Part shown: in pieces, positions 3,079 through 28,187 of the stretch
Layout of the letters: the number at the start of each line of letters is the position of its first letter
Position numbering within the stretch: the first letter of the stretch is position 1
Made by a program: the position numbers and the translations under genes
Notes under the pieces: model-generated
Seen by the model: the letters and a program-made list of their open reading frames with translations, nothing else
What the model was told of the DNA's origin: nothing
Database searches by the model: none
Assembly (NCBI RefSeq): GCF_035285525.1
Contig: NZ_JAYKGW010000050.1
Span: forward strand, 1-32,000
Direction: 5' to 3'
Source: Okeania sp.
GTDB taxonomy: Bacteria; Cyanobacteriota; Cyanobacteriia; Cyanobacteriales; Microcoleaceae
DNA length: 32,000 nucleotides

Positions 3079-3352
3079 GTAAGTATTCAGCCGTCAGCTA
3101 TCAGCTATCAGCTATCAGAAGAGTGCTTTTAATCTTTGATAAAAGCTTTATTAATTGAGCCAAAAAAATCTTACTAAAAAAGTCAGTCCACTTGATATTA
3201 GAGTCTATTTTCATTGAAATAATCTCCTTAAACACAGGATTTCTTTGCTGTTAACGTTAGCAAAGCTCCTCTGCAAGAGGCACTTCCGACCCAGGAAGTT
3301 GGCTGAGGTGCTAATAGCTGTTTGCGCAGCATTCCCTATGCGAAATGCTTAC
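3079..3352. mobile_element. MITE, family 1 (TIR GTAAG[C/T]ATT...), 274 bp, TSD TTATATGG
   Basis: Left end is GTAAGTATTCAGCCGTCAGC and right end is ...GAAATGCTTAC. It is flanked by identical TTATATGG at 3071-3078 and 3353-3360. No ORF inside. Confidence 0.8.
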
Positions 3353-5508: not shown

Positions 5509-5765
5509 ATTAATCCTATTTTATTTGTGAAAAAAACTGTAGGCGTTTGGTCTCCAAACCTAAGCAAAAATGGGATTTAGAAACCAAAACCCTGAGATAA
5601 GATATTACAACTTTTATTCATAACTTTAAATTCTCCTTGCCAATTAATTCTTCCTTATTTTTAGGGAATAGGGAACAGGGAAAAGGTAAGAGTTTCCGTT
5701 TTTTTTATCTACTTTTTGATTGGTAACAACCTATTTAGGATTAATATATGCAATGGATTTATTGG

Positions 5766-5870
5766 TGAGGTACATCTACGCGGGCAAAATGCACGGTTCC
5801 CGAAAAATCGTACTGGGAATATTTCATTATTAATATTTGTACTTCAGATACTTGAAATTTGCTGTATATA
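5766..5870 (-). promoter_or_regulatory. Conserved upstream block shared with 10737-10822 (possible promoter/operator of TPR-sulfotransferase genes)
   Basis: GTGAGGTACATCTACGCGGGC plus ATTATTAATATTTGTACTTCAGATACTTGAAATTTGCTGTATATA lie 260-360 nt upstream of the 5508 start. A near-identical pair of blocks lies upstream of the 10691 start. Confidence 0.35.
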
Positions 5871-5916
5871 TTCTCTCTTCCTTCTTCCTTCTTCCTTTTT
5901 CCTTTTTCCTTTTTCC

Positions 5917-8172
5917 TCAATTTTCCCAATTAAATTTCCTACCCAAATACTCTTCTAATTTTTGATTATGAGGTTGAAAGAAATTGCTTAATTTTTGATG
6001 CAATGATTTACTGATAGGTGGATAGGAACCTAAATTTAATTTCTTATAATCAGGAACTTTATAATTTGGCAAACCAAGAAAGTTAAAGACTTGTTTCATT
6101 ATAATTGTGGGAGTGCGATAAAATTCTGCTGTTGATAATATCAGAAATTGTTTTGACGGAAATCTAGTCATCCAATTTTGGATAAAATCTATATATATTC
6201 CAGTGCCTAAATAATATAATCTATGATGCCAATAACTACTATCTAAGGGAGAATTTTTATAAATCATTTCCCAAGTTTCTAACTCCTCATTTAATGCAGT
6301 TTCTAGATCGCGATTTTCTCTATTTATTCTCAACCAATGATAATAATGAGAAATAGCTCTATCCACAGGATTTCTCAACATAATAATTAACTTAATTTTT
6401 GAGCAATAACTAAACATTCTTTCTGGCGCTTCCCAATTTCCTAAATAACTTGGACTTGCTTCTCCAGTGATAAAATTTTGATGGTTAGGAATGGCAGGAA
6501 AATGGGAGAGATACCAATTTATGCCTTTGTCAAAATTCATCGACCAAAAATTTATTTCTTTCACCACTGGAGACAAAACTTGAGGATGTTGGGTTAGATA
6601 ACTAAATAAAGATGTAGTTCCTCCTTTTCCTACTCCAATAATTAGAAAATCAGGATTTTTAACTTCTTTTAAATGCCACTGTTTTTGGAAAAGATAGGGG
6701 TGAGATTTTATGGTTTGTTGGTAACAAGCAGTTTGGTAACAAATAATTGCTTCATTGATTTTATTCTGTTTTGTCAGAATTTCTCCTAGATGTAAATAAG
6801 ATAAAAATGAATCTGGATTTTTGTTAATAAATTGCCGATATAAATTGACTACTGTATCTAATTTATTGCAGCGGTCTAAAGTATTCCATAAATTATAATT
6901 TGACCAAGATAATTCTGGATTAATTTCTATGGCATGGAGATAAGATATAGCAGCTTCCTCCCATTTTTGTTGCTCAATAAAAGCATCTCCTAAAAATTGA
7001 TGGATTTCGGAAATATTGGGTTGAAGAGAAATAGCTTTTTGATAAGAGGCGATCGCTTCTTCTAATTTTTTTTGTTTGACTAGAGTATTTCCTAAGTAAT
7101 TCCATAACCAAAAATTACTGGGATTTTTTTGAATTTCTTGGCGATAAATAGTTTCTGCTTTTTCCCATTTATCTTGTTTCAGAAATACATTCCATAAAGA
7201 TATTTGCGGTCTATCTATTTCTGGAGAAAGTTGGATTGCTTTTAAGTAATTAAGAATAGCTGCTTCTAATTTTCCTGTATTTTCCAGAACATCTGCTAAT
7301 GAATTATAAGACCAATAATAATTAGGATTAATTTCTATGGCACGACGATATGCTGTTATAGCTTCTGACCAATTTTCTAGTTTGGCTAAAGCATCTCCTA
7401 ATGAGTTATGAGACCAATAAGAATTAGGATTAATTGCTATTGCTTGATGATATTTGGTAATAGCTTTTGTTTCTTTTTCTTGTTTTAAGAAAACTTCTCC
7501 TAAATTATGGTGAGCAAAGTAAATTTCGGGATTTATTTCTACTGCTTTTTCGAGAATAATTTCTGCTTCATCTAATCTACCTAATATAATTAAAGTTTCC
7601 CCTAATTTATTGTGAGACCAATAAGAATTAGGATTAATTGCTACTGCTTTTTGATAGGCAGTTACTGCTTCATGTAAATTATTTTGATTAGTTAGTGCTT
7701 CTCCTAATTTTTCATAAGATAAATAAAATCCGGGATTTAGTTTAATTGCTTGTCTGAATGCTGTAGCAGCTAAATCCCATTTTGATAATTCTAGAAAACT
7801 CTCTCCTAGTTTTTGATATGACCAAGAAAAGTTAGGGTTAAGTTCTATGGCACGTTGATAATAATTTACAGCTTTTTCCCACTGTTGAAGTTGCATTAAT
7901 GCTTCCCCTAATTTGTGATGAAACCAGGAAAAATTAGGGTTCAGTTTAATTCCATCTTGGTAAATAGTAATAGCTTGGGAAAATTGTTTTTGTTTGAGGT
8001 AAATATCTCCCAATTTTTGGTAAATTTCCCAATGTTCAGGTTGCAGTTCTATAACTTTTTCATAACAGGCGATCGCTTCGTCTATTTGGCTTTGGGATAA
8101 ATAATTTTCTGCTTGTTTTTGGTTTTGCAGTGCTATAGTTTGTAAGTCTTTATTTGAGGGCATAAAAGTCAT
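5917..8172 (-). CDS. TPR-repeat protein with C-terminal sulfotransferase domain (paralog 2)
   Basis: 751 aa with a long TPR array. Sulfotransferase motifs are FLIIGVGKGGTTSL, TGEASPSY and LRNPVDRAISHY. The C-terminus LEEYLGRKFNW is almost identical to paralogs 1 and 3. Confidence 0.9.
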   Translation of the reverse strand: MTFMPSNKDLQTIALQNQKQAENYLSQSQIDEAIACYEKVIELQPEHWEIYQKLGDIYLKQKQFSQAITIYQDGIKLNPNFSWFHHKLGEALMQLQQWEKAVNYYQRAIELNPNFSWSYQKLGESFLELSKWDLAATAFRQAIKLNPGFYLSYEKLGEALTNQNNLHEAVTAYQKAVAINPNSYWSHNKLGETLIILGRLDEAEIILEKAVEINPEIYFAHHNLGEVFLKQEKETKAITKYHQAIAINPNSYWSHNSLGDALAKLENWSEAITAYRRAIEINPNYYWSYNSLADVLENTGKLEAAILNYLKAIQLSPEIDRPQISLWNVFLKQDKWEKAETIYRQEIQKNPSNFWLWNYLGNTLVKQKKLEEAIASYQKAISLQPNISEIHQFLGDAFIEQQKWEEAAISYLHAIEINPELSWSNYNLWNTLDRCNKLDTVVNLYRQFINKNPDSFLSYLHLGEILTKQNKINEAIICYQTACYQQTIKSHPYLFQKQWHLKEVKNPDFLIIGVGKGGTTSLFSYLTQHPQVLSPVVKEINFWSMNFDKGINWYLSHFPAIPNHQNFITGEASPSYLGNWEAPERMFSYCSKIKLIIMLRNPVDRAISHYYHWLRINRENRDLETALNEELETWEMIYKNSPLDSSYWHHRLYYLGTGIYIDFIQNWMTRFPSKQFLILSTAEFYRTPTIIMKQVFNFLGLPNYKVPDYKKLNLGSYPPISKSLHQKLSNFFQPHNQKLEEYLGRKFNWEN

Positions 8173-8174
8173 TT

Positions 8175-8195
8175 CAGTTATTAGTTATCAGTTAT
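8175..8195. repeat. Heptamer repeat (CAGTTAT/TAGTTAT)x3 abutting the start codon of the 5917-8172 gene
   Basis: Read directly. It starts 2 nt from the reverse-strand ATG at 8172. Confidence 0.85.
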
Positions 8196-8540
8196 CAATA
8201 CCTCTGACTAAATCCAGAGACTTGAAATACTGAAGCTCATTTTTTTTCATCCTCTTAACAGGATTCGTCAAAAGTAATCTGAGTAATTTCTGAGGCAAAA
8301 ATTTAGCTATGTCAAAATGTGAAAGTCGAAATTAACCTCTGAGCAGAAATTTACTTTTCCTTTTCTAGAAAGTTCCGAGTTAAAAGTTAGGCGACTCATT
8401 TTTTTTAAGCTTTCTAGTATCTGGATTGAAGTCCCTAATAAATCTCATCATCGGATAAATATGTATTTGTTTTTTATCCTATATATTCCTTGACTAAATA
8501 TGTGTAATTAATTTGGGAAAAATGCTGACACAAAACCTTG

Positions 8541-10691
8541 TTAATCCCAATTAAATTTCATGCCAAGATACTCTTCTAATTTTTGATTATGGGGTTGAAA
8601 TAATTCAGAAAGTTGACCGCGCAAATGAGTATCTATTGGAGGATAAGAACCAGGGTAGTAATTTTTATATTCTAAAAGTTGATAATTTGGTAAACCTAGA
8701 AAATCAAAAACTTGTTTAGTTGTCGCTGCCGGATTTTCATACATATCCTCACTCTTTAATATTAAAAACTGTTTTCTTGGAAATATATTCATCCATTCTT
8801 GGAGAAAATATAGATATAAACCTAGACCTAAATACCTAGTTTTTTTACCTTGGAGAAAACTAGGACTGGTTTGAGACTGATTTATCATTTTTTGCAATAT
8901 TTTTGTTTCTAAAGCTACTACTTCTGCAAAACTTCTTTGTTCTTGTCCTAGTCGTTTATCCATATAGTAGTGAGAAACAGCTCTTTCTATAGGATTTCTC
9001 AATATAGCAATTAACTTAATGTTGGGAAAATAACTAAATACTTTACTTGCTGCTTCTACAGAATAAATATAGTTAGGAGTTGCTTCTCCTGTCAGAAAGT
9101 TTTGCTGTTCTGGAATAGCTGGAAATTGGGATAAATACCAATTAATTGTCTTGTAAGAATTAACATGAAAAAAGTACAGTTCTTTTTCTACAGCAGGTAA
9201 AACTGAGGGATGTTTAGCTAGATAAAAATAAAGAGATGATGTACCACCTTTAATTGCACCAATAATCAAAAAATTTGGTTTGCCTACTCCTGTTCTTTCT
9301 CCATATTTATTGATAAATTCTGGATGAGTTTGTGCTAATTTTAAGTGTAAAACTTTTTGATAGTAACTGGTAGCCTCCTGAATTTTATTTTGTTTAGCTA
9401 AAATATTCGCTAAATTCAGATAATGCTCAGGAAATTTTGGCTTAATCTCAATAGCTTCTTGGTAACAGTTAATCAATTTATTTAATTGATTTTGATCTAA
9501 TTTAACTAACTGGTAACTATGAATCGATCTGAGCTTATTATAAGCCATAAAAAAATCAGGTTGTAGTTGAATAGCTTTAATATAACAAGCGATCGCCTCA
9601 TCTGAATTTCCTGTTTCTAAAAGAGCGTCTCCTAAGTCTTTATTAAACCAAGCTAAATCTGACTTTAAATTGATAGCTTTTTGATAATAAATAATTGCTT
9701 CATCTATTAATCCTTTTTTGTGCAGCACATATCCTAACTGATAATAAAACCAATAATAGTCAGGATTTTTTTTCAGAGCAAGTTTATAGTTGACGACTGC
9801 TTCATCCCATTTTTTTGTTTTGAGTAATACTTCCCATAAATTATGGTAGTACCAATAAAAATCCGGCTGAATATCTATAGCTTTTTGATAAGCTAAAACT
9901 GCTTCATCCCACTTTTTTAGTTTGCTTAAAGCTTTCCCTAAACTGTTGTAATCATTTGGGATATTTGGGTTTATCTTTATCGCATATTCATAAGCAGTTA
10001 CAGCTTCATCCCACCTTTTGAGTTCTATTAAAACCTCACCTAAATTTTTATATAACTCCTCAGAATTAGAATTAGTCTTAGTGGCACGACGATAATAAAC
10101 CACAGCTTCATCCCATCGTTTTAATTCCTTTAATGCTTTGGCAATTTTGTGATAAGACCAGGGAAAATTTGGTTCTAATTCCATGAATTTATCATAATTA
10201 TTTACAGCTTCATCCCACTTTTGTAATTGGATTAATACTTCTGCAAGTTTGTGATAAGACCAAGGAAAATCTGGTTTTAATTCTATAACTTTGCGAAAAG
10301 CAATTGCCGCTTCGTTCCACTTTTTCAGTTCCATCAATGCTGTGCCTAATTTTTGGTAATACCAAGGAAAATTAGGATTATTCTTGATAGCATTGCGGTA
10401 ACTAATGGTTGCTAAATCCCACTTTTTTTCTTGAAAATATAGATTAGCTAGATTAGAATGAGATTGACTAAAATGGGGATTAATTACAATGGCTTTTTGA
10501 TAATATTCCTGGGCTAATTCTTGATTGCCCATAGCTTCAAGTACCTGGCCTTTAGTATTACAAACTAACGCCAAATATTCTAGTTTTTCTAATGCTTGAT
10601 TACAAAATATCTCAGCTTCATTTAATTTTCCTTCTGCTAAACAAGATTGTGCTTTCTGGTTTAAATCTATTACTGATATTTCCTGGTTCAC
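8541..10691 (-). CDS. TPR-repeat protein with C-terminal sulfotransferase domain (paralog 3)
   Basis: 716 aa with a TPR array (KWDEAV..Y...I...P.F.W.YH.L). Sulfotransferase motifs are FLIIGAIKGGTSSL, TGEATPNY and LRNPIERAVSHY. C-terminus is LEEYLGMKFNWD. Confidence 0.9.
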   Translation of the reverse strand: MNQEISVIDLNQKAQSCLAEGKLNEAEIFCNQALEKLEYLALVCNTKGQVLEAMGNQELAQEYYQKAIVINPHFSQSHSNLANLYFQEKKWDLATISYRNAIKNNPNFPWYYQKLGTALMELKKWNEAAIAFRKVIELKPDFPWSYHKLAEVLIQLQKWDEAVNNYDKFMELEPNFPWSYHKIAKALKELKRWDEAVVYYRRATKTNSNSEELYKNLGEVLIELKRWDEAVTAYEYAIKINPNIPNDYNSLGKALSKLKKWDEAVLAYQKAIDIQPDFYWYYHNLWEVLLKTKKWDEAVVNYKLALKKNPDYYWFYYQLGYVLHKKGLIDEAIIYYQKAINLKSDLAWFNKDLGDALLETGNSDEAIACYIKAIQLQPDFFMAYNKLRSIHSYQLVKLDQNQLNKLINCYQEAIEIKPKFPEHYLNLANILAKQNKIQEATSYYQKVLHLKLAQTHPEFINKYGERTGVGKPNFLIIGAIKGGTSSLYFYLAKHPSVLPAVEKELYFFHVNSYKTINWYLSQFPAIPEQQNFLTGEATPNYIYSVEAASKVFSYFPNIKLIAILRNPIERAVSHYYMDKRLGQEQRSFAEVVALETKILQKMINQSQTSPSFLQGKKTRYLGLGLYLYFLQEWMNIFPRKQFLILKSEDMYENPAATTKQVFDFLGLPNYQLLEYKNYYPGSYPPIDTHLRGQLSELFQPHNQKLEEYLGMKFNWD

Positions 10692-10736
10692 AGTATTTTC
10701 TCCTGGTAATTATCTATTACAGCCGATTCTACTTTT

Positions 10737-10822
10737 GTGAGGTACACCCACGCGGGCTAGGAACTTTTAATTATTAATCTTAATATTTGTACTTCTTATA
10801 CTTGGAATCTGCTGTAAATATA
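10737..10822 (-). promoter_or_regulatory. Second copy of conserved upstream block (see 5766-5870)
   Basis: GTGAGGTACACCCACGCGGGC plus TTATTAATCTTAATATTTGTACTTCTTATACTTGGAATCTGCTGTAAATATA lie 46-130 nt upstream of the 10691 start. Confidence 0.35.
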
Positions 10823-10983
10823 CAGCAAGCATTCAGCTATTAACATTCAGCTATCAGCTTTTAAAATAATTCAGCAAAGACTAAGATTAACTGACAGAAA
10901 TATTTCATTGATAACTTTTAATTCTCGTTAGATTGATACCTTATAAGTTTTTGTCTTATCTAAACTGTAATACTTACCAAAAA

Positions 10984-12906
10984 TCAAGGGTATTCTTTTT
11001 CAAGTATTTCAGAAACTGTCTTAAACTTATAACCTTGAACTGTCAATGTTTCAAGAATAATTTCTGTTGCTTTTACTGTTTTGGTACGATTATCGTGCAT
11101 TAAAATAATTGCACCTGGTCTAGCATTTTCTATGACATAATTAGCAATTGTTTCCCAGTCATTTTCTTTTACATAATCCTTCGAGTCAATATTCCACAGA
11201 ATCATTTTCTTTTTCATCTCTAATATCATATCAATTAGAGAGAAACTACTCAGACCAAAAGGAGGTCGAAATCTAATTTTATGAGTAACACCTAACTGCT
11301 GTAAAATTTCATCAGTTTTGGCAATTTCTGCTTTGATTAATTCTGGAGATTCCTGAGATAAATCTAAATGAGAATAGGAGTGATTAGCTAATTCATGCCC
11401 TTTAGCTAATATTAATTTCCCTAATTTTAGATGATTTTTCAGATTTTTACCAAGAGCAAAGAACGTAGCTTGAGCTTGATAAAAATCTAATATATTGAGA
11501 ATTTGATTAGTATAGGGAGGATTCGGCCCATCATCATAAGTTAAGGCAATTACCTTTTCTTTTATAGATACTTGTTTAATCCCAAAAAATTCATAATTTG
11601 GTTTTATTTCTAAAACTTTTTGGAAACATTTTCTGGCTTCAGACCATTTTTCTTGTCGCATATAAATATCTACTAATGCTTCATAGCTTGAAAAAGATTC
11701 TGGAAAGATTTGTAAGGTTTTTTGATAATTAGTTATTGCTGCTTCTAGCTGACCTAATGTTTGGAGAACATCCCCTAATTTTTTGTATAGTTTTTCTGTT
11801 GGTTGATAACTAATAGCTTGTTGATATATTGCTACAGCATCAGACCATTTTTTTTGTTTCGTTAAAGCTTCTCCTAAACCATAGTAAGACCAATCAGAAT
11901 CTGGTTTAATTTTAATTGCTTGACGGTAGGCAGATATGGCTTCATTCCATCTTTTTAGTTGTAGAAAAGTATTTCCTAAATTGTGGTGAGCAAAATGTAA
12001 GTTAGGGTTAATTTCAATTGCCTGTTGATAAGCTGTTATAGCTTCTTCATATCTAGATAGTTTAGATAGAGCTTTTCCTAAATTATAATAATACCAATAA
12101 TTATTCGGATGAATTTCAATAGCATTTTGATATATTTCTACAGCTTCCGACCACTTTTCTAGTTTGATGAATTTTTCTCCTAACTCAGTATATAACTTAG
12201 GATTAATATTCACTGCTTGACGATAAGCTGCTAAAACTTCTGCCCAATTTTCGAGTTTTATTAAGGCATCCCCTAGATTTTTGTAAGCTAAATCTATATC
12301 TGGTTTAAGTTTGATAAAGTGACGATAAGCACTAACAGCTTCCTCCCACTTTTTTAGTTTTATAAAAGCTTGCGCCAGTTTATTATAAGGCCAAGGAAAA
12401 TTTGGTTTGATTTTAATAAAATTACGATAGGCATTAATAGCTTCCTCCCAATTTTTCAGTTCCATAAAAGCATCACCTAGTTTATTGTAAGACCAGGGAA
12501 AATTTGGTTCTATTGCTATAACTTTACGATAGGCATCAACAGCTTCATCCCATCGTTTTAACTGTAGTAATGCTTCTCCTAATTTAGGGTAATACCAAGG
12601 AAAATTAGGATTTAGTTCTGTAGCTTTTTTATAAGCAATCACAGCTTCATCCCATCGTTTTAACTGTAGTAATGCTTCTCCTAATTTGTGGTAAATTTCT
12701 CCCTTATTTGGGTTTAACTGAATTGCTTGATTATAATGTTCAATTGCTGCTTGCCATTGTTGCTGTTGGGAAAATAAATCACCTAAATTAATATAAGGTT
12801 CTACTAGGTTAAAATTCATAATGATTACTTTTTGATAATATTCCTGAGTTAATTTTTGGACAGAACTATTTGAAGAATTAAAAATGCTCAAACCTTTAGA
12901 TTTCAA
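10984..12906 (-). CDS. TPR-repeat protein with C-terminal CE4 (NodB-type) polysaccharide deacetylase domain
   Basis: 640 aa. After ~430 aa of TPR, all five CE4 motifs are present: LTYDDGP, ANHSYSH, RFRPPFG, WNIDSKDY and IILMHD. No signal peptide. Confidence 0.9.
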   Translation of the reverse strand: MKSKGLSIFNSSNSSVQKLTQEYYQKVIIMNFNLVEPYINLGDLFSQQQQWQAAIEHYNQAIQLNPNKGEIYHKLGEALLQLKRWDEAVIAYKKATELNPNFPWYYPKLGEALLQLKRWDEAVDAYRKVIAIEPNFPWSYNKLGDAFMELKNWEEAINAYRNFIKIKPNFPWPYNKLAQAFIKLKKWEEAVSAYRHFIKLKPDIDLAYKNLGDALIKLENWAEVLAAYRQAVNINPKLYTELGEKFIKLEKWSEAVEIYQNAIEIHPNNYWYYYNLGKALSKLSRYEEAITAYQQAIEINPNLHFAHHNLGNTFLQLKRWNEAISAYRQAIKIKPDSDWSYYGLGEALTKQKKWSDAVAIYQQAISYQPTEKLYKKLGDVLQTLGQLEAAITNYQKTLQIFPESFSSYEALVDIYMRQEKWSEARKCFQKVLEIKPNYEFFGIKQVSIKEKVIALTYDDGPNPPYTNQILNILDFYQAQATFFALGKNLKNHLKLGKLILAKGHELANHSYSHLDLSQESPELIKAEIAKTDEILQQLGVTHKIRFRPPFGLSSFSLIDMILEMKKKMILWNIDSKDYVKENDWETIANYVIENARPGAIILMHDNRTKTVKATEIILETLTVQGYKFKTVSEILEKEYP

Positions 12907-12933
12907 TACTTTTGGATTTAATCAGCAGAGCAA

Positions 12934-12968
12934 TAATTATTAATTATTAATTATTAATTATTCATTAT
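12934..12968. repeat. Heptamer repeat (TAATTAT)x5 spanning the stop codon of the 12954-14753 gene
   Basis: Four perfect units and one variant unit. It overlaps the ...GIMNN* end of the upstream gene and fills most of the 47-bp spacer to the next gene. Confidence 0.85.
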
Positions 12969-14753
12969 TCCGGCTTTTTTGTATAAATAAGATAAGAGTG
13001 TATTGCTAGAAATAATCTCTGCTTTACTAACATTTTTCAATGGTTCAAACATAAACTTGTTATAAAGAGGACAGAACAAGTAATTTTTGACATTTAATTT
13101 TCCTGGTTTAAGAAACTTTTCCCACTCTTTCCAGGGTACTAACCAAGCCCTTAATTTAACATTATAATATTTATAATTTTTAGCTTCTTTACATATTAAT
13201 TCTTTTCCTAATTCAGTCCATGAGATATGTTTTCCTGAGTCAAAAATAGCCTCAATTTGATTAATACAAGTTTGCAAAAAATTATGTTGAGGACGAGCAG
13301 CAAAGGATGTCAGAGCAAATGCTGAACCCAAAGTTACTAAATCAAAATCTTTTAAATGAGATATAAAATTAGTATAGAGATTTTTAAACACAATTGTATC
13401 TAGATCAATCCACATTCCTCCATTATCATTTAATAACTTTATTCTTAGGTAATCTGCTTTATGTGCTGGTAATAATGTTTTGGTAAAAATTCGAGGATGA
13501 ATTTCTTTGAGATATGCTTTAACATTTTGAGGATTAACTAAAATAACATCTGCTAAACCAGAATGAATTTTCATTGTTTCTAAGCATAATTTTAAGTAGT
13601 CTGGCATTTCTTGAGAATAGACATTTTCCCAATATACCCAGATAGTTTTGGGAATATAAGATTCATCTACTTGTTTCAGGGCATAACCTAATTTTTCATG
13701 GAATAAATAGTTATTTGGTTTAATTTTTGTAGCTGTTTGATAAGCTGTTATAGATTCATCCCATTTTTCTTTTTGAGCAAGAGCATCTCCTAAAATTTGA
13801 TAAAACGAAGGTAAATTTGGATTGGTTTCTATCACAGTTTGACACTCTATAATAGCTGCATCTAATTTTCCTATTTTTAGTTTAATTTCAGCTAATTTTC
13901 GCCGAATTTCCCAAATATCTGATTTGATTTCTATCACTTTTTGATAATATTTTTCTGCTGATTCTAAGTCTCCCTTTTGCTCAAAAATATCTCCTAATTT
14001 TTTGTAAGACCAGGGAAAATTAGGGTTAATTTCTATAGCCAGGCGAAAATTACTAATAGCTAAATTTAATTCTCCTCTTTCTTGAAATATTTTCCCTAGT
14101 TTATGGTGAACTGCCCAAAAGTCAGGTTTCAATTCAATTGCTTTTTGATAATAATTTATTGCCCCGTTGAAGTCTTTTGTTTTCAGTGAAATATCTCCTA
14201 AATTTTGATAAGCATTTGCCAAAAAAGGATTTAATTCTATGGCTTTCTGGAAATAAGCGATCGCCTCTTCTATCTCATCATTTTCTAAACAGTTTTTTCC
14301 CTGTTTTAAATATTCTGATGCTTGAGGATAATATGCTTCTAAAGTCAATGCTTGTTCTTGACAATCTCTAGCTAATTCAACTTTTCCTAATTCCTGCCAA
14401 ATTTTTCCTAAATTCCGATAAAAACCAGGAATATTTGGTTTAATTCCTATCGCTTCTCGGTAACATTCAATTGCTAACTGCCATTGTTTTTGTTGTGCAT
14501 ATATACTCCCTAAATTAGCATAGCTCTCTGCTAAATTTGGTTGTTGATTTATGGCTTTTATGTACCACTCTTTGGCTTGATTTATTTCACCCATTTTTTG
14601 CAGAATATTTCCCAATATTTTACAGGTAGGTGGAAAATCAAGCTCTATTTCTAATACTTGCTGACAAGCTGTTATTGCCTCTTCTAATTTTCCTTGAGTT
14701 AAATATATTTCTGCTTTTTGATTTAAGTGAATTACTGAGATTATCTTGCCCAT
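12954..14753 (-). CDS. TPR-repeat protein with C-terminal DXD glycosyltransferase-like domain (GT32 / capsular-polysaccharide-synthesis-like)
   Basis: 599 aa. About 370 aa of TPR are followed by IPKTIWVYWEN...HKADYLRIKLLNDNGGMWIDLDTIV. This matches the 'ADxxRxxxLxxxGGxYxDxD' sugar-binding signature of GT32/Gly_transf_sug-type enzymes. The family assignment is from memory of the motif only. Confidence 0.75.
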   Translation of the reverse strand: MGKIISVIHLNQKAEIYLTQGKLEEAITACQQVLEIELDFPPTCKILGNILQKMGEINQAKEWYIKAINQQPNLAESYANLGSIYAQQKQWQLAIECYREAIGIKPNIPGFYRNLGKIWQELGKVELARDCQEQALTLEAYYPQASEYLKQGKNCLENDEIEEAIAYFQKAIELNPFLANAYQNLGDISLKTKDFNGAINYYQKAIELKPDFWAVHHKLGKIFQERGELNLAISNFRLAIEINPNFPWSYKKLGDIFEQKGDLESAEKYYQKVIEIKSDIWEIRRKLAEIKLKIGKLDAAIIECQTVIETNPNLPSFYQILGDALAQKEKWDESITAYQTATKIKPNNYLFHEKLGYALKQVDESYIPKTIWVYWENVYSQEMPDYLKLCLETMKIHSGLADVILVNPQNVKAYLKEIHPRIFTKTLLPAHKADYLRIKLLNDNGGMWIDLDTIVFKNLYTNFISHLKDFDLVTLGSAFALTSFAARPQHNFLQTCINQIEAIFDSGKHISWTELGKELICKEAKNYKYYNVKLRAWLVPWKEWEKFLKPGKLNVKNYLFCPLYNKFMFEPLKNVSKAEIISSNTLLSYLYKKAGIMNN

Positions 14754-15188: not shown

Positions 15189-18100
15189 ATGACTCCTAAA
15201 GTAAGCGTAATTATTCCGGTTTATAACTGTGAACTTTACATCGCCCAAGCAATTGAAAGTGTCTTGAATCAAACTTATACTGACTATGAAATTATTGTTA
15301 TCAATGATGGTTCCACAGATAATACCTATCAAATATTACAACCATACATGACAAAAATTCGTTATTTTTATCAAGAGAATAAAGGATTATCTGCTACTCG
15401 TAACCAAGGCATAAAAATGGCAAAAGGAGAATTAATTGCTCTTCTGGATGCTGATGATTTATTTCTGTCTGATAAACTTGAAAAACAAGTAGCTATTTTT
15501 GATGCTCAACCAAATATAGGTTTAGTACAAAGTGGGTGGCGAGTTGTTAATGAAAAAGGAGAAAAAATTGAAGATGTTGAACCTTGGCATAAATCTCCAG
15601 AATTAGATTTAGTAAGTTGGTTAAAATGGAAAGCTACTAATCCTAGTAGTATGATGTTTCGGAAGGAATGGTTGGAAAGAGTAAATGGGTTTAATGAAGA
15701 GTTTCGTAGATTAGAAGATTTTGACATAGTAATTCGATTAGCTTTAGCAGGTTGTCAAGCTACTTGGTTTCCTAAAGTTGCTGTCTGTTATCGTCAACAT
15801 AGTGGCAATATGACCAGAAATTTACTTGCTCAAATAGCAGTAGAGGAAAAAATTTTAGATGAGCTTTTTTCTAATTCTAATCTACCTTTAGAAATTCAAC
15901 ATTTAGAAAGAGAATTACGCTACGGTTCTCTAATTTGGAATTGTTGGTGTTTATATAAATCTGGCTACTTTGCTGAAATGGCTGATTATTTGCATAAATC
16001 TTTAAATTTTTCTCCTGTTTCTGTGCTTAAAACTATCTGTGAATGGCTCTATTATTTTCACTATTATGCTTCTCTAGAAAACTATTCATTTAATTCAGTT
16101 TCTTTGAATCAAATACCAGAGTGGCAATTTTTAATAAATAAAATTATGCCAAATGGTTTACCATTGGTGAGCGTGGTTATTCCGACTTTTAATAATGCTG
16201 ATTATATTGTTAAAGCTATTGAAAGTGTTTTTGCTCAAACTTATACTTTTTGGGAGATTATTGTTGTTGATGATGGTTCTACCGATCGTACTTACCAAGT
16301 TTTAGAATCTTACCTTAATCAAATAGACTTTTTGCCAAATTTTCCAACAGGAAATAGACTACAGAAAACAGAGAGAAGTCAAAATTTACCTTCCGACTTT
16401 TCCCAGAACTTTCCAACAGGAAACAGACAAGAGAAACCAGGAGCAAATTTTCCCGAAACAGAGAGTAGTCAAAATTTACCTTCTGACTTTTCCCAGAACT
16501 TTCCAACAGGAAACAGACTACAGGAAACAGAGAGTAGTCAAAATTTACCTTCCGACTTTTCCCAGAACTTTCCAACAGGAAACAGACTACAGGAAACAGA
16601 GAGTAGTCAAAATTTACCTTCCGACTTTTCCCAGAACTTTCCAATAGGAAACAGACTACAGGAAACAGAGAGTAGTCAAAATTTACCTTCCGACTTTTCC
16701 CAGAACTTTCCAATAGGAAACAGACAAGAGAAACCAGGAGCAAATTTTCAGGAAACCGGAAGTAACCAAGATTTAACTTTAGACTTTTTGTCAAACTCTT
16801 CCACAGGAAATAAACAAGAGGAAGCCGATAAAAATATTCAGAAAAAAGAGAGTAATCAAAATTCAACTTTGACATTTGCCAGAGGTCTAATTAAATATGT
16901 ATATCAAGAAAATCAAGGACCATCAATCGCTCGGAATTATGGTATAGAAATAGCTCAGGGAAAATATATCGCCTTTCTCGATGCAGATGACTTTTTTCTA
17001 CCCGAAAAATTAGCCGAACAAGTAGGATGTTTTGCAGAAGATTCAACTTTAACAATGGTGCAAACTGGGTGGAGATTTGTTGATGAGAAAGGTCAGACTA
17101 TTAAAGATGTAAAACCCTGGGAAAATAGTACGGAATTAGACTTAGAAAATTGGTTAATTTGGCAAGCGACTTTACCCAGTGCGATGATGTTTAAAAGTGA
17201 ATGGTTAAAAGTTAATGGTGGGTTTGACAAACGATATTTTGGCATTGAGGATTTAGAAATAGTTTTGCGGTTAGCTTTAACCGGAGGAAAAGCGACTTGG
17301 TTACGCAAAGTTTGTGTTTGTTATCGACAGCGTAGTAGTAGTGTCTCTGGTTTGGATAATCGACAAAAAATTACTCAGGAATTAGAAAAATTATTAGATG
17401 ATTTTTTCGATAAACCTAATTTACCTACTGCCATACGTCAAATAGAAAACCAGATAAAATATCGGTCTCTACTTTGGAATTGTTGGCGTTTATATAAGGC
17501 TGGTAATTTATCAGAAATGGCTACTTATTTGCAGAAGTCTTTGAGTTATACTTCTGATTCTCCCACAACAGCAATTTGTACTTGGATAGAATTATTTACT
17601 AAGCTAGATAGTCAAGAAGGAAATCAATTTAATGCTTATAGTTTTAGTCAGTTGCCAGAATGGAAAAAATTAATTAGTAATATTTTTAATCCAGTTGTGC
17701 CGAGGGTAAGTGTAATTATTGCCACCTACAATAATGCTAACTATATTTTAGAGGCGATCGCCAGTATTTTTAATCAAACTTATACGTCTTACGAAATAAT
17801 AGTTATTGATGATGGCTCTACTGATAATACTCGTCAAATTTTAGAACCTTATTTAGATAAAATTCGCTATGTTTATCAAGAAAATAAAGGAGTCTCTCAC
17901 GCCAGAAATTTAGGTTTAGAAATGGCGCAGGGAGAATTTATTTCTTTTCTTGATGCTGATGACTTTTTCCTACCAGATAAACTGGCAAAACAAGTAGCTG
18001 TTTTTGATAGTCGTCCTTCTCTAGGAATTGTTCATAGTGGGTGGCGTTTAATTAATGAAAAAGGAGAGAAAATTTCGGATATAGAATTATGGCATGGTTC

Positions 18101-18662
18101 CCTAGAATTAGACTTAGAAACTTGGGTAGTTTGGAAACCTGTAACTATTTCTATGATGTTTCGTAAAAGTTGGATAAAAAGCGCTGGAGGTTTTGATACT
18201 CGTTGGCATCATGGAGAAGATATTGACTTAGTTTTGCGTTTATCTATTAATGGTTGTGAGGCAGTTTGGTTGCCAAAAGTTACTTATTGTTATCGTCAAC
18301 ATCAGTGCAATGCTACGAGAAAATCTAGTCAACAAGCTGTTAGTATGATGGCTGTTTTAGATAACTTTTTTGCCAGAGAAAATTTATCAATATCTATTCG
18401 TAAATTAGAGGCAAAATCTCGTTATTATACTTTAAGTTGGTTAGCATGGCAAGCACATCGAAATGGAGATTTAATTGAGATGGATAAATATCTAAGAAAA
18501 GCTTGTAAATATACTCCTTTATCTATTATAGAAACTATCGATCATTGGGTAGAAAGTTTTCATAATCTTTATCAAGATTATGGTTATGATTTTGATGTTT
18601 ATAGTTTCACAAATTCAGATGTTTGGCAAAAATTAATGTTAGATATGATTATTAGTATTTGA
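15189..18662 (+). CDS. Tri-modular family-2 glycosyltransferase (three GT2 domains, each with a conserved ~170-aa tail)
   Basis: 1157 aa. The three modules start at KVSVIIPVYN (aa 4), LVSVVIPTFN (aa ~328) and RVSVIIATYN (aa ~838). Each has (I/V)(N/D)DGSTD, QENxG, LDADD (DXD) and an (E/I)ED(F/L/I)(D/E) acceptor motif. Each is followed by a shared tail CYRQ..........L(D/E)..F......L...IR..E...RY..L.W.CW.LYK.G...EM..YL.KSL. Confidence 0.9.
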   Translation: MTPKVSVIIPVYNCELYIAQAIESVLNQTYTDYEIIVINDGSTDNTYQILQPYMTKIRYFYQENKGLSATRNQGIKMAKGELIALLDADDLFLSDKLEKQVAIFDAQPNIGLVQSGWRVVNEKGEKIEDVEPWHKSPELDLVSWLKWKATNPSSMMFRKEWLERVNGFNEEFRRLEDFDIVIRLALAGCQATWFPKVAVCYRQHSGNMTRNLLAQIAVEEKILDELFSNSNLPLEIQHLERELRYGSLIWNCWCLYKSGYFAEMADYLHKSLNFSPVSVLKTICEWLYYFHYYASLENYSFNSVSLNQIPEWQFLINKIMPNGLPLVSVVIPTFNNADYIVKAIESVFAQTYTFWEIIVVDDGSTDRTYQVLESYLNQIDFLPNFPTGNRLQKTERSQNLPSDFSQNFPTGNRQEKPGANFPETESSQNLPSDFSQNFPTGNRLQETESSQNLPSDFSQNFPTGNRLQETESSQNLPSDFSQNFPIGNRLQETESSQNLPSDFSQNFPIGNRQEKPGANFQETGSNQDLTLDFLSNSSTGNKQEEADKNIQKKESNQNSTLTFARGLIKYVYQENQGPSIARNYGIEIAQGKYIAFLDADDFFLPEKLAEQVGCFAEDSTLTMVQTGWRFVDEKGQTIKDVKPWENSTELDLENWLIWQATLPSAMMFKSEWLKVNGGFDKRYFGIEDLEIVLRLALTGGKATWLRKVCVCYRQRSSSVSGLDNRQKITQELEKLLDDFFDKPNLPTAIRQIENQIKYRSLLWNCWRLYKAGNLSEMATYLQKSLSYTSDSPTTAICTWIELFTKLDSQEGNQFNAYSFSQLPEWKKLISNIFNPVVPRVSVIIATYNNANYILEAIASIFNQTYTSYEIIVIDDGSTDNTRQILEPYLDKIRYVYQENKGVSHARNLGLEMAQGEFISFLDADDFFLPDKLAKQVAVFDSRPSLGIVHSGWRLINEKGEKISDIELWHGSLELDLETWVVWKPVTISMMFRKSWIKSAGGFDTRWHHGEDIDLVLRLSINGCEAVWLPKVTYCYRQHQCNATRKSSQQAVSMMAVLDNFFARENLSISIRKLEAKSRYYTLSWLAWQAHRNGDLIEMDKYLRKACKYTPLSIIETIDHWVESFHNLYQDYGYDFDVYSFTNSDVWQKLMLDMIISI
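16338..16880 (+). repeat. In-frame coding tandem repeat array (units of 69, 90, 69, 69, 69, 90 and ~87 bp) inside GT2 module 2
   Basis: Unit boundaries are 16338, 16407, 16497, 16566, 16635, 16704, 16794. Units 16497-16565 and 16566-16634 are identical, and 16635-16703 differs by 1 nt. The unit encodes NFPTGNRLQETESSQNLPSDFSQ. The 90-bp variants add QEKPGAN. Confidence 0.95.
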
Positions 18663-20856: not shown

Positions 20857-20958
20857 TTGTCTTTTCTATCCTATAAAGATATTTTGCTTATGTTAATTTT
20901 ATATTAAATTTTATCATAATCCTTCATAAAATTTCTCATTTTAAGGAGTAGGGAGTGG

Positions 20959-20993
20959 ATAATTGATAATTGATAATTGATAATTGATAATTA
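20959..20993. repeat. Heptamer repeat (ATAATTG)x4 plus one variant
   Basis: Read directly. Confidence 0.9.
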
Positions 20994-21044: not shown

Positions 21045-21362
21045 TATGAGGTAGATCAATCGTGGACAAGATCAATATTTTTACCATTTACCATATATCT
21101 CATTTGCCCGAAATATGCTGTATATCCAAATTTAGAGAGTGGGTAAATAATGATTATCTAGATCAGAGCAAGACGCTCCCACTGTCGCCAACTGATAACT
21201 AATAACTGATATAGGAAGGGAACAAAATGCCCCCCACTATCACAAACTGATAACTGATTTAGGGAGTAGGGAGTAGGGAGTAGGGAGTAGGAGCTAATGG
21301 CCATTATGTAGGAAGAGAGCAAGATGCTCTCACTGTAGCCAAATAATAACTGATAACTGAAA

Positions 21363-22733: not shown

Positions 22734-22739
22734 TTTTTT

Positions 22740-22774
22740 CAGTTATCAGTTATCAGTTATCAGTTATCAGTTAG
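22740..22774. repeat. Heptamer repeat (CAGTTAT)x4 plus one variant, 6 nt upstream of the mnmE start
   Basis: Read directly. Confidence 0.9.
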
Positions 22775-25013: not shown

Positions 25014-26309
25014 TTAATCCCTATTTACTAATTGATTAAGTGGCTGAAAAACATCCGCTTCAAAAGCTCTACCTGCCAACATCCGATTCCAGTAAATCCA
25101 AGGTAGAGCATAAGCTTTAGCCAAAAACATAACATAACGTTCTTTAGTCGGATCTAGAGGGAAAGAAGGAGCCACTTTCTTCTCATAATCAAATTCCGCC
25201 ATGATCGCTGAATCATAACCAGTAATCAAAGGACAACAGGTATAACCGTCATATTTCGCCATTAATGGCTGACTCTTCATCTTTGAAAGCAGGTTTTCTA
25301 CCACTATAGGTGTTTGTTTCCGAGCAGATGCCGCCGTTTTAGAAGTAGGAGCAGATGAAGCATCCCCTAAGCTAAATACATTAGGATAACGATTGTGTTG
25401 CATTGTATATTTGTCTACATCTACCCAGCCTTTTTCATCAGCGAGGAGACTTTGTTTAATAAAATCAGGGCAACTCATCGGTGGACTAACATGAATCATA
25501 TCATAGTGAATACTTACCTCTTCTACTCCGTTTTCAGTTGTGACATCAAAAATGGCTTCTTTACTATCTGCTTTAATTTCTTTCAGGTTATGTTGAAAAT
25601 TAGTAGTAATTCCACGTCTTTGTACAACTTTTTCTAAGGTTGCATTGTATGCTGGAACCCCAAACATTCTTGTACCAGCGGTGCAAAACATGACTTTAGT
25701 GTTAATTCCTACTCCTGCTCTCTGCTTAAAAGAGTCATCTGCCATATACATAATTTTTTGTGGTGCGCCACCACACTTAATGGGAGTATTAGGATAGGTA
25801 AAAATCGCTGTACCCCCTGGGAAATTTTTAATAGTTTCCCAGGTGTAAGGGGCATAATCTTTGGAATAGTTGCTGGTGACTCCACCCTTACCTAATGCTT
25901 CTGGTAGTCCTTTAACTAAATGCCAGTCGATCTGGATACCCGGACAAAGAACGAGATAGTCATATTCTATTGTTTGACCTTGAGCTAAAGTCAAACAGTT
26001 GCGATCTGGATCGAGAGTGGTTACATAATCTTGAATCCATTTTGCCCCTTGAGGAATCACATCTTTTTCCTCTCGAATAAATTGATCGATGGGTGCAATG
26101 CCTCCTCCTACTAATGTCCATCCCGGTTGATAGTAGTGTTTCTGACTTGGTTCAATGATCGCAATATCTAAGTTAGATTGTTGTCTGAGCAGTTGAGCTG
26201 CAGTTGTAATTCCTGCTGCTCCACCACCGACAATAACAATTTGATAGTGAGAAACAGAATTAGTTAATGGAATAGATTTTTGTTGTTCAAGTTGTATGGT
26301 ACTCACCAT
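25014..26309 (-). CDS. sqr: Sulfide:quinone oxidoreductase, type II (mitochondrial SQOR-like)
   Basis: 431 aa. The FAD fingerprint is IVIVGGGAAGIT, followed by HYYQPGWTLVGGG. The redox cysteine contexts are PIKCGGAPQKIMY and YDGYTCCPLITGY, plus LGDASSAPTSKTAA. It is collinear with human SQOR as recalled. Confidence 0.9.
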   Translation of the reverse strand: MVSTIQLEQQKSIPLTNSVSHYQIVIVGGGAAGITTAAQLLRQQSNLDIAIIEPSQKHYYQPGWTLVGGGIAPIDQFIREEKDVIPQGAKWIQDYVTTLDPDRNCLTLAQGQTIEYDYLVLCPGIQIDWHLVKGLPEALGKGGVTSNYSKDYAPYTWETIKNFPGGTAIFTYPNTPIKCGGAPQKIMYMADDSFKQRAGVGINTKVMFCTAGTRMFGVPAYNATLEKVVQRRGITTNFQHNLKEIKADSKEAIFDVTTENGVEEVSIHYDMIHVSPPMSCPDFIKQSLLADEKGWVDVDKYTMQHNRYPNVFSLGDASSAPTSKTAASARKQTPIVVENLLSKMKSQPLMAKYDGYTCCPLITGYDSAIMAEFDYEKKVAPSFPLDPTKERYVMFLAKAYALPWIYWNRMLAGRAFEADVFQPLNQLVNRD

Positions 26310-26862: not shown

Positions 26863-27639
26863 TTACCGTTGAATTAACACAAAAATTCCCACAGCTAAAA
26901 CAAAATAGCCAAAACCTTTTTGTAAACTTTTAGCATCAATTAAACGAGTCAGATAAGCACCAGCAATAGTGCCGAAACTAGCTGCGATCGTGAAAGAAAT
27001 CATTAAAGCCCAATCCAATTCCACCTGGTCAAGATAACCCGCAAACCCCGTCATAGATTTAAAAGCAATAATGATCAGGGAAGTCCCGATCGCTTCCTTC
27101 ATCGGAATACCCCCTAAAAGGACTAAAGCCGGAATGATCGCAAAACCACCCCCTACACCCACAAATCCAGTTAAAATCCCTACTCCCAATCCTTCTAATG
27201 GGATAGCCCACCATTGACTGTGGCCTTCCTGATGACTATCATTCTCTGGTTCCGAGTCCTGATTTTTCACAGGTGGCTTTCCTTTCCGAATCATTAATAC
27301 GCTGGCCAAAACCATGATGACAGCAAAGCAAATCAGTTGAAAAGTTTCCGTAATAAAGTCAAACGCTGCTATCCGCGCTCCCAGATAAGCCCCTAACATA
27401 GCAGCAGGAGCAAAAGTACCAGCCACTCGCCAATTAAGATTTCCTTGCATCCAGTGAGGAATTGCACCAATGAGACTCACAGAACCGACAATGAATAAAC
27501 TCATAGTGATGGCTTCTTTGGCCCCTATTTTCATAACGTAGATTAAAATTGGTACGGCTAGGATAGAACCCCCGCCACCAATCAAGCCCAGGCTTAGTCC
27601 AATACAAATCGCTAAAAAATGTCCAATAATCCAAATCAT
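26863..27639 (-). CDS. TauE/SafE family sulfite/anion exporter (DUF81)
   Basis: A polytopic membrane protein with two internal repeats, each carrying the G.GGG.. motif (GLIGGGGSILAVP and GFVGVGGGFAIIP). I place the start at MIWIIGHF (ATG 27639), 8 nt after the rhodanese stop. The track start at 27699 would overlap that gene by 52 nt. Confidence 0.8.
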   Translation of the reverse strand: MIWIIGHFLAICIGLSLGLIGGGGSILAVPILIYVMKIGAKEAITMSLFIVGSVSLIGAIPHWMQGNLNWRVAGTFAPAAMLGAYLGARIAAFDFITETFQLICFAVIMVLASVLMIRKGKPPVKNQDSEPENDSHQEGHSQWWAIPLEGLGVGILTGFVGVGGGFAIIPALVLLGGIPMKEAIGTSLIIIAFKSMTGFAGYLDQVELDWALMISFTIAASFGTIAGAYLTRLIDAKSLQKGFGYFVLAVGIFVLIQR

Positions 27640-27647
27640 AATTTCGT

Positions 27648-28187
27648 TTACAACTTTTGATTGTAAGGTAATTTTGCCAGTAACATAGCCAGGGCGCAAG
27701 TATTAGTAATGCCAGCAAACAGAAGTCCGCATCCGATAAAACCACTAAGAATTAAAAACCATTGGGAAACAAATGCTCCTAAAAGTGTACCTGTTACGAC
27801 TAAAAAACCTGTTACAATTTGTACCTGACGCATCAGACTTATAGGAGCATTACGATTAATAATAGTTGGTAGTCCTGCTTTTTTCCAGGCTTCGATACCA
27901 CCATCAAGCTGAGTCACTTTCTCGAAACCTACCGCCAATAGCTTTTTGGCTGCTTGACCAGAGCGGTTGCCAGCTTGACAGTAAAGAACTAATGTTTTAT
28001 CTGGCTCTGTGGGAATTTGATGAGGTTCAAATTTAGACAAGGGGACTAATACAGCTTGGGGAATATGTTCCCCTGCATATTCTGACGCTTCCCGAACATC
28101 AACCAGAGTGGCTAGGTTGTCATCTAACCAAGATTTTAAGGTATCTGCATCAACGGTTTGTAATGGGTTGTAATTAAGAGTTGTCAT
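27648..28187 (-). CDS. Rhodanese-domain sulfurtransferase with C-terminal two-helix membrane anchor (YgaP-like, DUF2892)
   Basis: 179 aa. The active-site loop is LYCQAGNRSGQAA (CxxxxR[ST]). The C-terminal hydrophobic hairpin ends in GITNTCALAMLL. Confidence 0.85.
   Translation of the reverse strand: MTTLNYNPLQTVDADTLKSWLDDNLATLVDVREASEYAGEHIPQAVLVPLSKFEPHQIPTEPDKTLVLYCQAGNRSGQAAKKLLAVGFEKVTQLDGGIEAWKKAGLPTIINRNAPISLMRQVQIVTGFLVVTGTLLGAFVSQWFLILSGFIGCGLLFAGITNTCALAMLLAKLPYNQKL

Follow-up and report, generated by a model that had tools for sequence, protein, structure and literature searches.

In-frame variable number tandem repeats (VNTRs) occur in surface proteins such as the staphylococcal SD-repeat proteins, the streptococcal alpha C protein and the yeast FLO adhesins, and the phase-variable lgt and lic genes of Neisseria and Haemophilus carry homopolymer or tetranucleotide tracts whose frameshifts turn expression on or off. 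The array described here lies in a 32,000-nucleotide stretch of DNA from Okeania sp. (contig NZ_JAYKGW010000050.1, positions 1 to 32,000 of the forward strand; the window, hereafter), inside a gene for a glycosyltransferase of family GT2. With the surface-protein VNTRs it appears to share whole-unit slippage and unequal recombination, homogenisation of the array, length polymorphism between strains and a low-complexity hydrophilic spacer as its product. Those repeats form stalks between the domains of secreted or wall-anchored proteins, whereas the window array is situated inside a Rossmann-like catalytic core. Like the lgt/lic contingency loci, it is a hypermutable repeat within a glycosyltransferase gene; the lgt/lic units, however, are not multiples of three, while units of 69, 87 and 90 bp keep the frame and alter the length of a loop. 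Classification as a phase-variable contingency locus was rejected, since every unit length is a multiple of three.

The nearest described phenomenon is the amino acid tandem repeats (aaTRs) of Borgs, which occur in glycosyltransferases among other proteins (Schoelmerich et al., 2023, PMC9879509). Both consist of near-perfect in-frame nucleotide repeats within open reading frames (ORFs), with a unit length divisible by three, flanking partial units, variable copy number, an A-enriched sense strand (here 40% A in the array compared to 33% in the rest of the gene) and mostly disordered peptides. Borgs are archaeal extrachromosomal elements, whereas the window array belongs to a cyanobacterial chromosomal gene. 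The array also differs from the Borg aaTRs in its long 90-bp unit, in being old enough for ∼15–20% divergence between units and species, and in being a single locus where the Borg repeats are genome-wide, the other arrays of the window being tetratricopeptide repeat (TPR) periodicities and intergenic heptamers. A literature search found no paper describing this locus. We read the array as a lineage-specific, hypervariable in-frame minisatellite whose product is a tolerated disordered loop, a weakly constrained and non-catalytic passenger or spacer, and put the probability of this reading at roughly 70%. It is a clear but ordinary coding minisatellite, and what is distinctive is its site within a catalytic domain and how widely it varies in size, from 0 to over 760 residues.

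The host gene (15189..18662, + strand, from the ORF list and translation) encodes a protein of 1157 amino acids with three tandem GT2 modules of the GT-A fold, each followed by a helical region. Pfam PF00535 (Glycos_transf_2) matches this protein with E=4.9e-114 and 378 bits (cutoff 23.3) in four stretches rather than three, because the insert splits module 2. The closest solved structures, from Foldseek and a sequence search of the PDB, are K4CP, SpsA, TarS/TarP and WrtF. K4CP (PDB 2z86/2z87) is the best match in both sequence (E=1.6e-34) and fold (Foldseek E=2e-23), and likewise has multiple GT-A domains per chain, as a multi-GT-A polymerase with which Pasteurella heparosan synthase 2 is grouped; K4CP differs in having two domains and in lacking a repeat insert, whereas the window protein has three modules and the array. 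The number of these ∼325-residue GT2 modules varies among related proteins, one of which (P0005) has four.

The N-terminal part of module 2 (16161..16322, + strand) comprises beta1-alpha1-beta2 (DDGS)-alpha2 and ends in ...ESYLNQ, with these elements placed by translation and the AlphaFold2 (AF2) model at E327-333, H340-348, E355-361 and H368-376. The remainder of the module with its helical region (16890..17690, + strand) contains beta3 (IKYVY), the DADD metal-binding motif at 598-601 and ED at 687-688, as located by alignment columns and AF2. A preliminary description of this DNA had placed an array at 16338-16880, between ESYLNQ and IKYVYQENQG, as an interruption of the second GT2 domain in a loop, and had read the corresponding sequences of modules 1 and 3 as LQPYMTKIRYFYQENKG and LEPYLDKIRYVYQENKG. 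Translation reproduces both junctions and both module sequences, and the flanking AF2 helix (368-376) and strand (568-572), along with the four Pfam stretches, agree with a split in a loop. Insert-free orthologues, which are 966-972 residues long, read ...YLNQ/IKYVYQENQG across the site (e.g., ...EPYLNQ/IKYVYQENQG), and by comparison with them the whole insert amounts to 189 codons (16323..16889, + strand; IDFLPN...TFARGL; AF2 residues 377-565).

An in-frame parse of the array gives units of 69, 90, 69, 69, 69, 90 and 87 bp, the same lengths as first described, with the last unit (previously ∼87 bp) now fixed. Their sum of 543 bp covers exactly 16338-16880 when units begin at the Asn codon, so the earlier coordinates hold for the units, and the full insert goes beyond them by a leading partial unit and a trailing GL. 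The leading partial unit IDFLPN (16323..16340, + strand) matches the ...LDFSQN tail of a unit, and all insert-bearing orthologues open the array with [IT]DF[SL][QE]N. The end of the array, ...NQN.TLTFA[RG]GL, is kept in most non-erythraeum insert-bearing orthologues, and the erythraeum group ends in …TF[AG]RCL.

Within the array, on the + strand throughout, unit 1 (16341..16409, 69 bp, FPTGNRLQKTERSQNLPSDFSQN) is 3 nt away from units 3 and 4 (16500..16637, 69 bp each, with copies starting at 16500 and 16569), which have 0 differences between them. Unit 5 (16638..16706, 69 bp) departs from these two by a single C>T change, replacing Thr with Ile, and the two identical units and the third one nucleotide off that were noticed earlier are thus accounted for. 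Unit 2 (16410..16499, 90 bp) is a mosaic, in which a 5′ half of ancestral type (QEKPGANF) precedes a 3′ half of the 69-bp type, unit 6 (16707..16796, 90 bp) is near the family 30-residue consensus (…NFQETGSNQDLTLDFLSN), and unit 7 (16797..16889) is a degenerate terminal unit of 87 bp plus GL. Tandem Repeats Finder (TRF) reports the 69-bp period over 16455-16725, with 3.9 copies, 99% matches, no indels and a score of 521. An 18-mer taken from the unit occurs six times in the window, always within the array, compared to 0.06 occurrences expected from shuffles. Within the window, a 206-nt block of sequence also repeats 297 bp downstream at 83% identity, and both this recurring block and the mosaic unit 2 fit recombination between units.

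A small palindrome, TTTCC-AACA-GGAAA, opens each unit (e.g., 16341-16354), and hairpins formed from it could favour slippage. An RNA element was also considered for the array and rejected, as the fold z-score is only -2.3 against shuffles and is accounted for by the one small palindrome per unit; Rfam has no match in the window and no tRNA was found there.

The preliminary description treated the 69-bp unit, which encodes the 23-residue peptide NFPTGNRLQETESSQNLPSDFSQ, as the basic repeat. The 69-bp unit and its peptide are real, but the family unit is 30 residues long (90 bp), with the pattern N-[SFY]-P-T-G-N-[RK]-Q-P-[EQ]-A-D-K-N-F-Q-[EQ]-x-G-S-N-[QR]-D-[SL]-[TA]-[LF]-[DN]-F-S-Q, and this length is shared by all 57 canonical units compared (57/57). 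Relative to it, the 23-residue unit of the window is missing the seven residues after GNR. Comparison with the orthologues marks the 90-bp unit as ancestral, and the 69-bp unit as a derived form, 7 codons shorter, that was recently multiplied in the window. Only the window and Dapis sp. BLCC M172 were seen to have 69-bp units, in the same register and identical at 58/69 positions; the short form is therefore not unique to the window. The 30-residue unit also shows a possible 15-residue half-repeat. Units are more alike within genomes than between them (identity 0.847 vs 0.800) and the nearest unit lies in the same genome for 43/57, which points to partial homogenisation of units within genomes; in locus L013, identical units are also found at non-adjacent positions.

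The closest protein relatives of the window are from Trichodesmium, Dapis, Okeania and other Microcoleaceae, with MnmE and GT2 genes ∼85-89% identical, and no locus identical to the window was present in the genome collection searched. Most Okeania and Microcoleaceae orthologues have 0 copies of the unit. The 966-972-residue insert-free set consists of Okeania SIO2B3, SIO3B5, SIO1I7, KiyG1 and O. hirsuta, two Microcoleaceae metagenome-assembled genomes (MAGs) and a tar-biofilm MAG, and nine close orthologues without the insert are ∼82-86% identical elsewhere in the protein. A 996-residue protein, P0011, whose MAG bears the label Trichodesmium sp. jk18x7bins.61, is array-free as well, reading …YLNRA/KYIYQENQG; its extra length is a non-repetitive insertion of ∼25 residues, SSGEAGRGWQYGEDNKLLPKNYDGKNQ, at residues ∼298-324, in the helical stretch that links module 1 to module 2.

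Where the array is present, its length differs widely. One unit is found in P0148 and four further proteins of 1005 residues each, and two units are found in the finished genome of T. erythraeum IMS101 (1035 residues), in MAG_R04 and in P0158/P0162. The window has seven, a number that hinges on its assembly given four near-identical 69-bp units; 15 are present in P0002 and P0167, from two independent assemblies, and Okeania sp. SIO3I5 has at least 25, with at least nine more on another contig. For the array of L013, TRF counts 25.4 copies with 86% matches. The 1-unit and 2-unit forms (1005 vs 1035 residues) fall in one T. erythraeum-like cluster at 90% identity, which is direct evidence of whole-unit gain or loss between close strains, and the single unit of the shorter form looks like a recombinant of the two units. 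The window protein is a singleton cluster. With high-identity head-to-tail copies, a frame that is kept and a copy number that differs among close relatives, the array is a coding VNTR, or minisatellite. Recent or ongoing expansion, as first proposed, accords with the identical units and with relatives at 0, 1, 2, 7, 15 and at least 25 units, and copy number is thus not invariant. Replication slippage, along with unequal recombination among the units, would account for the gain and loss of whole units, with in-frame products alone surviving.

The array is also present in Dapis M229, in bin P01_H01_bin.35 and in Okeania SIO2F4, where contig ends cut it. Dapis M172 has a 100-N gap inside the array (L003:8648-8747), and breaks within it are seen at L001/L016, L002/L018, L013/L022, L015/L019, L042 and L043. 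A metagenome scan with the 3′-junction pattern recovered two contigs only, both starting within the array and both from another lineage. Because short-read assemblies break in the array, the gene is split over two contigs, and the array explains the broken, ‘partial’ annotation of this GT2 gene in many public MAGs. Repeats of this kind are often mis-assembled, and these broken contigs and the Dapis M172 gap, together with one lineage that lost the module 2 catalytic domain, could be taken to mean that the array is an assembly artefact or the sign of a decaying, non-functional module. We give this explanation the least credence of all, as no fewer than 10 independent assemblies, that of the finished T. 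erythraeum IMS101 genome among them, have the array in this position. Every array-bearing assembly compared has an intact ORF, so that the reading frame is uninterrupted, the catalytic motifs of module 2 are kept, and the ratio of nonsynonymous to synonymous differences (pN/pS) in the catalytic region does not exceed that of insert-free lineages.

Conservation of the frame extends to the array itself, where frame +1 alone is stop-free in all ten arrays examined. In the 2289 nt of L013, for example, the glycosyltransferase frame has 0 stops and the other five have 11-73. An antisense ORF of 186 residues in the window (16315..16875, - strand) was rejected as a gene, since the same frame contains 11 stops in L013, 8 in L001 and 7 in L022; it is open in the window because the repeated unit has no stop in that frame.

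In a neighbour-joining (NJ) tree built from the 588 residues that follow the insert, the insert-bearing orthologues fall together in one group. From this unbootstrapped tree, the array appears to have arisen once, in the common ancestor of the Trichodesmium/Dapis/Okeania-SIO3I5 clade. Searches for a source of the repeat returned little. Compared with Pfam, with matches allowed up to E=10, the repeat produced sub-threshold noise only, a word-indexed protein search with a composite of units retrieved orthologues of the GT2 gene only, and local alignment of the unit to the flanking gene scored no better than shuffles. An exhaustive phmmer search of 1.84 billion representatives yielded nine weak matches, and the four examined are unrelated low-complexity repeats. 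The Ile codon at both edges of the insert (ATA...ATT) was considered as a target-site duplication and is too short to count.

The insert of the window lacks V, M, W, Y, C and H altogether and is poor in I, with N, Q, S, P and F over-represented. N, Q, S, T and P together make up 53% of its residues (S and T ∼21%), mean hydropathy is -1.31 and net charge is -9. In the AF2 model of the window protein, computed from a 56-sequence alignment, pLDDT (the per-residue confidence score) is ∼90 across the three modules outside the insert, while residues 377-565, between H368-376 and E568-572, are coil with a pLDDT of 21-27 (∼23). A second AF2 run, on P0017 with its seven canonical 30-residue units, gives a pLDDT of ∼25 over residues 1-216. 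On composition and modelling, the insert is probably a disordered loop, in keeping with the disorder first suggested for it. The products of the family would be hydrophilic, acidic, N/Q/S/P-rich loops of 37 to more than 760 residues.

The regular 30-residue period, with its conserved Asn, Gly and Phe positions and possible half-repeat, could instead suggest that the repeats fold into a structured domain, for instance a beta-solenoid based on their N/F periodicity, and the last degenerate unit does form a short hairpin with beta3 in the P0017 model. Such a domain is highly improbable and we reject it on the two AF2 runs, in which pLDDT is 21-28 without secondary structure across the units. It also fits poorly with the 23-residue deletion variant, which has been tolerated and amplified, with the existence of arrays of one or two units, and with an insert that is I-poor and without V, W, Y or M.

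The array is predicted to sit in the middle GT-A domain, in the loop joining alpha2 to beta3, and its host to be a cytoplasmic GT2 glycosyltransferase with three modules. The 1157-residue protein has no predicted membrane helix (no 19-mer above a Kyte-Doolittle value of 1.4) and no signal peptide. Loop length at this site is not fixed within GT2, as K4CP has a loop there that is 3 residues longer. In the standard GT-A/Rossmann topology, loops that run from a helix into a strand occupy the sheet edge that faces away from the nucleotide-sugar site. On this topology, the loop of the window protein would leave the sheet at the N-terminal edge of beta3, on the side away from the nucleotide-sugar/DXD site, and with the loop on that side the catalytic domain could still fold and work.

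The split domain is itself conserved. D598 is invariant in the 56-sequence alignment, where D600, D601, E687 and D688 each reach at least 90% conservation, and all are kept in the window; the model and these retained DXD and acidic residues assign module 2 to the GT2 glycosyltransferases of the GT-A fold. In a codon alignment of the module 2 catalytic part downstream of the insert, pN/pS is 0.22 in insert-bearing and 0.21 in insert-free lineages. These equal flanking values, with the conserved DXD and ED kept, indicate that the insert has not relaxed selection on the domain it splits, and the equal pN/pS lends indirect support to glycosyl transfer by module 2. Among the units, pN/pS is 0.52-0.88 (pooled 0.61), which, as a rough guide only between paralogous units undergoing conversion, indicates weak purifying selection on the repeat. 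The loop is most probably a tolerated, weakly constrained passenger or flexible spacer that is not needed for catalysis.

Module 2 is not kept whole in every lineage. In Trichodesmium MAG_R02, protein P0029 is a 646-residue two-module form in which module 1 continues from ‘WNCW’ into the module 2 helical tail. A crossover of module 1 with module 2 at ‘WNCW’ removed the array along with the module 2 catalytic domain, and the P0029 lineage also holds a 1036-residue three-module form, P0158.

Several points weigh against the minisatellite with a tolerated loop as we read it. Copy numbers are read from assemblies, the window species is represented by its own assembly alone, and the long arrays stem from short-read MAGs, with possible mis-assembly. 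The NJ tree is without bootstrap support, and the low pLDDT may partly reflect a shallow alignment over the repeat. Translation of the repeat and activity of module 2 are both deduced from sequence. Five columns (N1, N6, N14, F15 and F28) are nearly invariant among the 57 canonical units, an apparent conservation that the shared ancestry of the units inflates. Together with a pN/pS below 1, these columns suggest some selection on the peptide, and a purely neutral passenger is thus not established.

Selection on the peptide could reflect binding of partners encoded nearby. Immediately upstream of the GT2 gene and divergent from it are five consecutive genes for TPR-enzyme fusions (3469-14753, - strand): three join TPR to Sulfotransfer_1, one to Polysacc_deac_1 and one to a Caps_synth/GT32-like domain, and the 102-bp TRF periods of these genes correspond to the 34-residue TPR motif. 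TPR ligands are usually extended and disordered, as the array is by AF2. The array could then be a selected, multivalent docking scaffold, in which units act as short linear motifs that recruit the TPR-sulfotransferases, the TPR-deacetylase and the TPR-GT32 protein, and copy number tunes recruitment. The weak purifying selection on the units and their nearly invariant N1, N6, N14, F15 and F28 would fit such a role. We nevertheless find it unlikely. Array and TPR partners do not track one another, as insert-free loci have the same types of neighbour: orthologues at L006-L009, L012, L014 and L021 also adjoin TPR-GT32 and TPR-sulfotransferase genes, and the TPR-sulfotransferase at the insert-free O. 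hirsuta locus is 81% identical to that of the window. Copy number spans 0 to at least 25, and in one Trichodesmium lineage the entire catalytic domain that bears the array is gone. The stretch with N14 and F15 is absent from the 23-residue units of the window itself, and in T. erythraeum units F15 is replaced by Thr. The TPR neighbours at insert-free loci and the loss of the module 2 catalytic domain in one lineage argue against an indispensable role, and a modulatory role remains compatible with them. The fuller proposal, that copy number of a tunable TPR-docking loop sets the load of tailoring enzymes and with it the modification pattern of a sulfated extracellular polysaccharide, is less probable again. 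If the scaffold reading were true, strains would gain fast, reversible variation of surface or sheath chemistry, and, if the loop recruits partners, variation in repeat number would be tied to polysaccharide modification in bloom-forming marine cyanobacteria.

The same locus encodes both glycosyltransferases and sulfotransferases, and with Ser and Thr at about a fifth of the insert, the array could also be a built-in acceptor that the enzymes of the locus glycosylate or sulfate. Glycosylated Ser/Thr-rich disordered regions are described for streptococcal membrane-associated proteins (PMC12041528). Those cases are extracytoplasmic, whereas the window protein has neither a signal peptide nor a membrane helix. 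The conserved positions of the unit are moreover not Ser or Thr and insert-free orthologues exist, and an acceptor role is very unlikely.

As a tolerated minisatellite, the array is a natural experiment on the disordered load that a Rossmann-like catalytic core can carry, with an insert of anything from 0 to over 760 residues separating alpha2 from beta3 and unchanged selection on the catalytic part. It could also serve as a length marker for strain typing in populations of Trichodesmium, Dapis and Okeania.

Elsewhere in the window, perfect or near-perfect tandem repeats of heptamers are found, mostly in intergenic regions, at 588-630 (AATAATT), 3094-3118 (TCAGCTA), 5876-5917 (TCTTCCT), 12934-12969 (TAATTAT), 20958-20992 (GATAATT), 21260-21291 (TAGGGAG) and 22739-22773 (TCAGTTA). 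These resemble the short tandemly repeated heptamers of filamentous cyanobacteria. Downstream of the GT2 gene are genes for a TauE/SafE-family sulfite exporter-like protein (26863-27699, - strand), an SbmA/BacA-like ABC transporter (30012-31703, + strand) and a pyridine nucleotide-disulfide oxidoreductase (25014-26309, - strand), which may be tied to the sulfur and sulfation theme of the locus.

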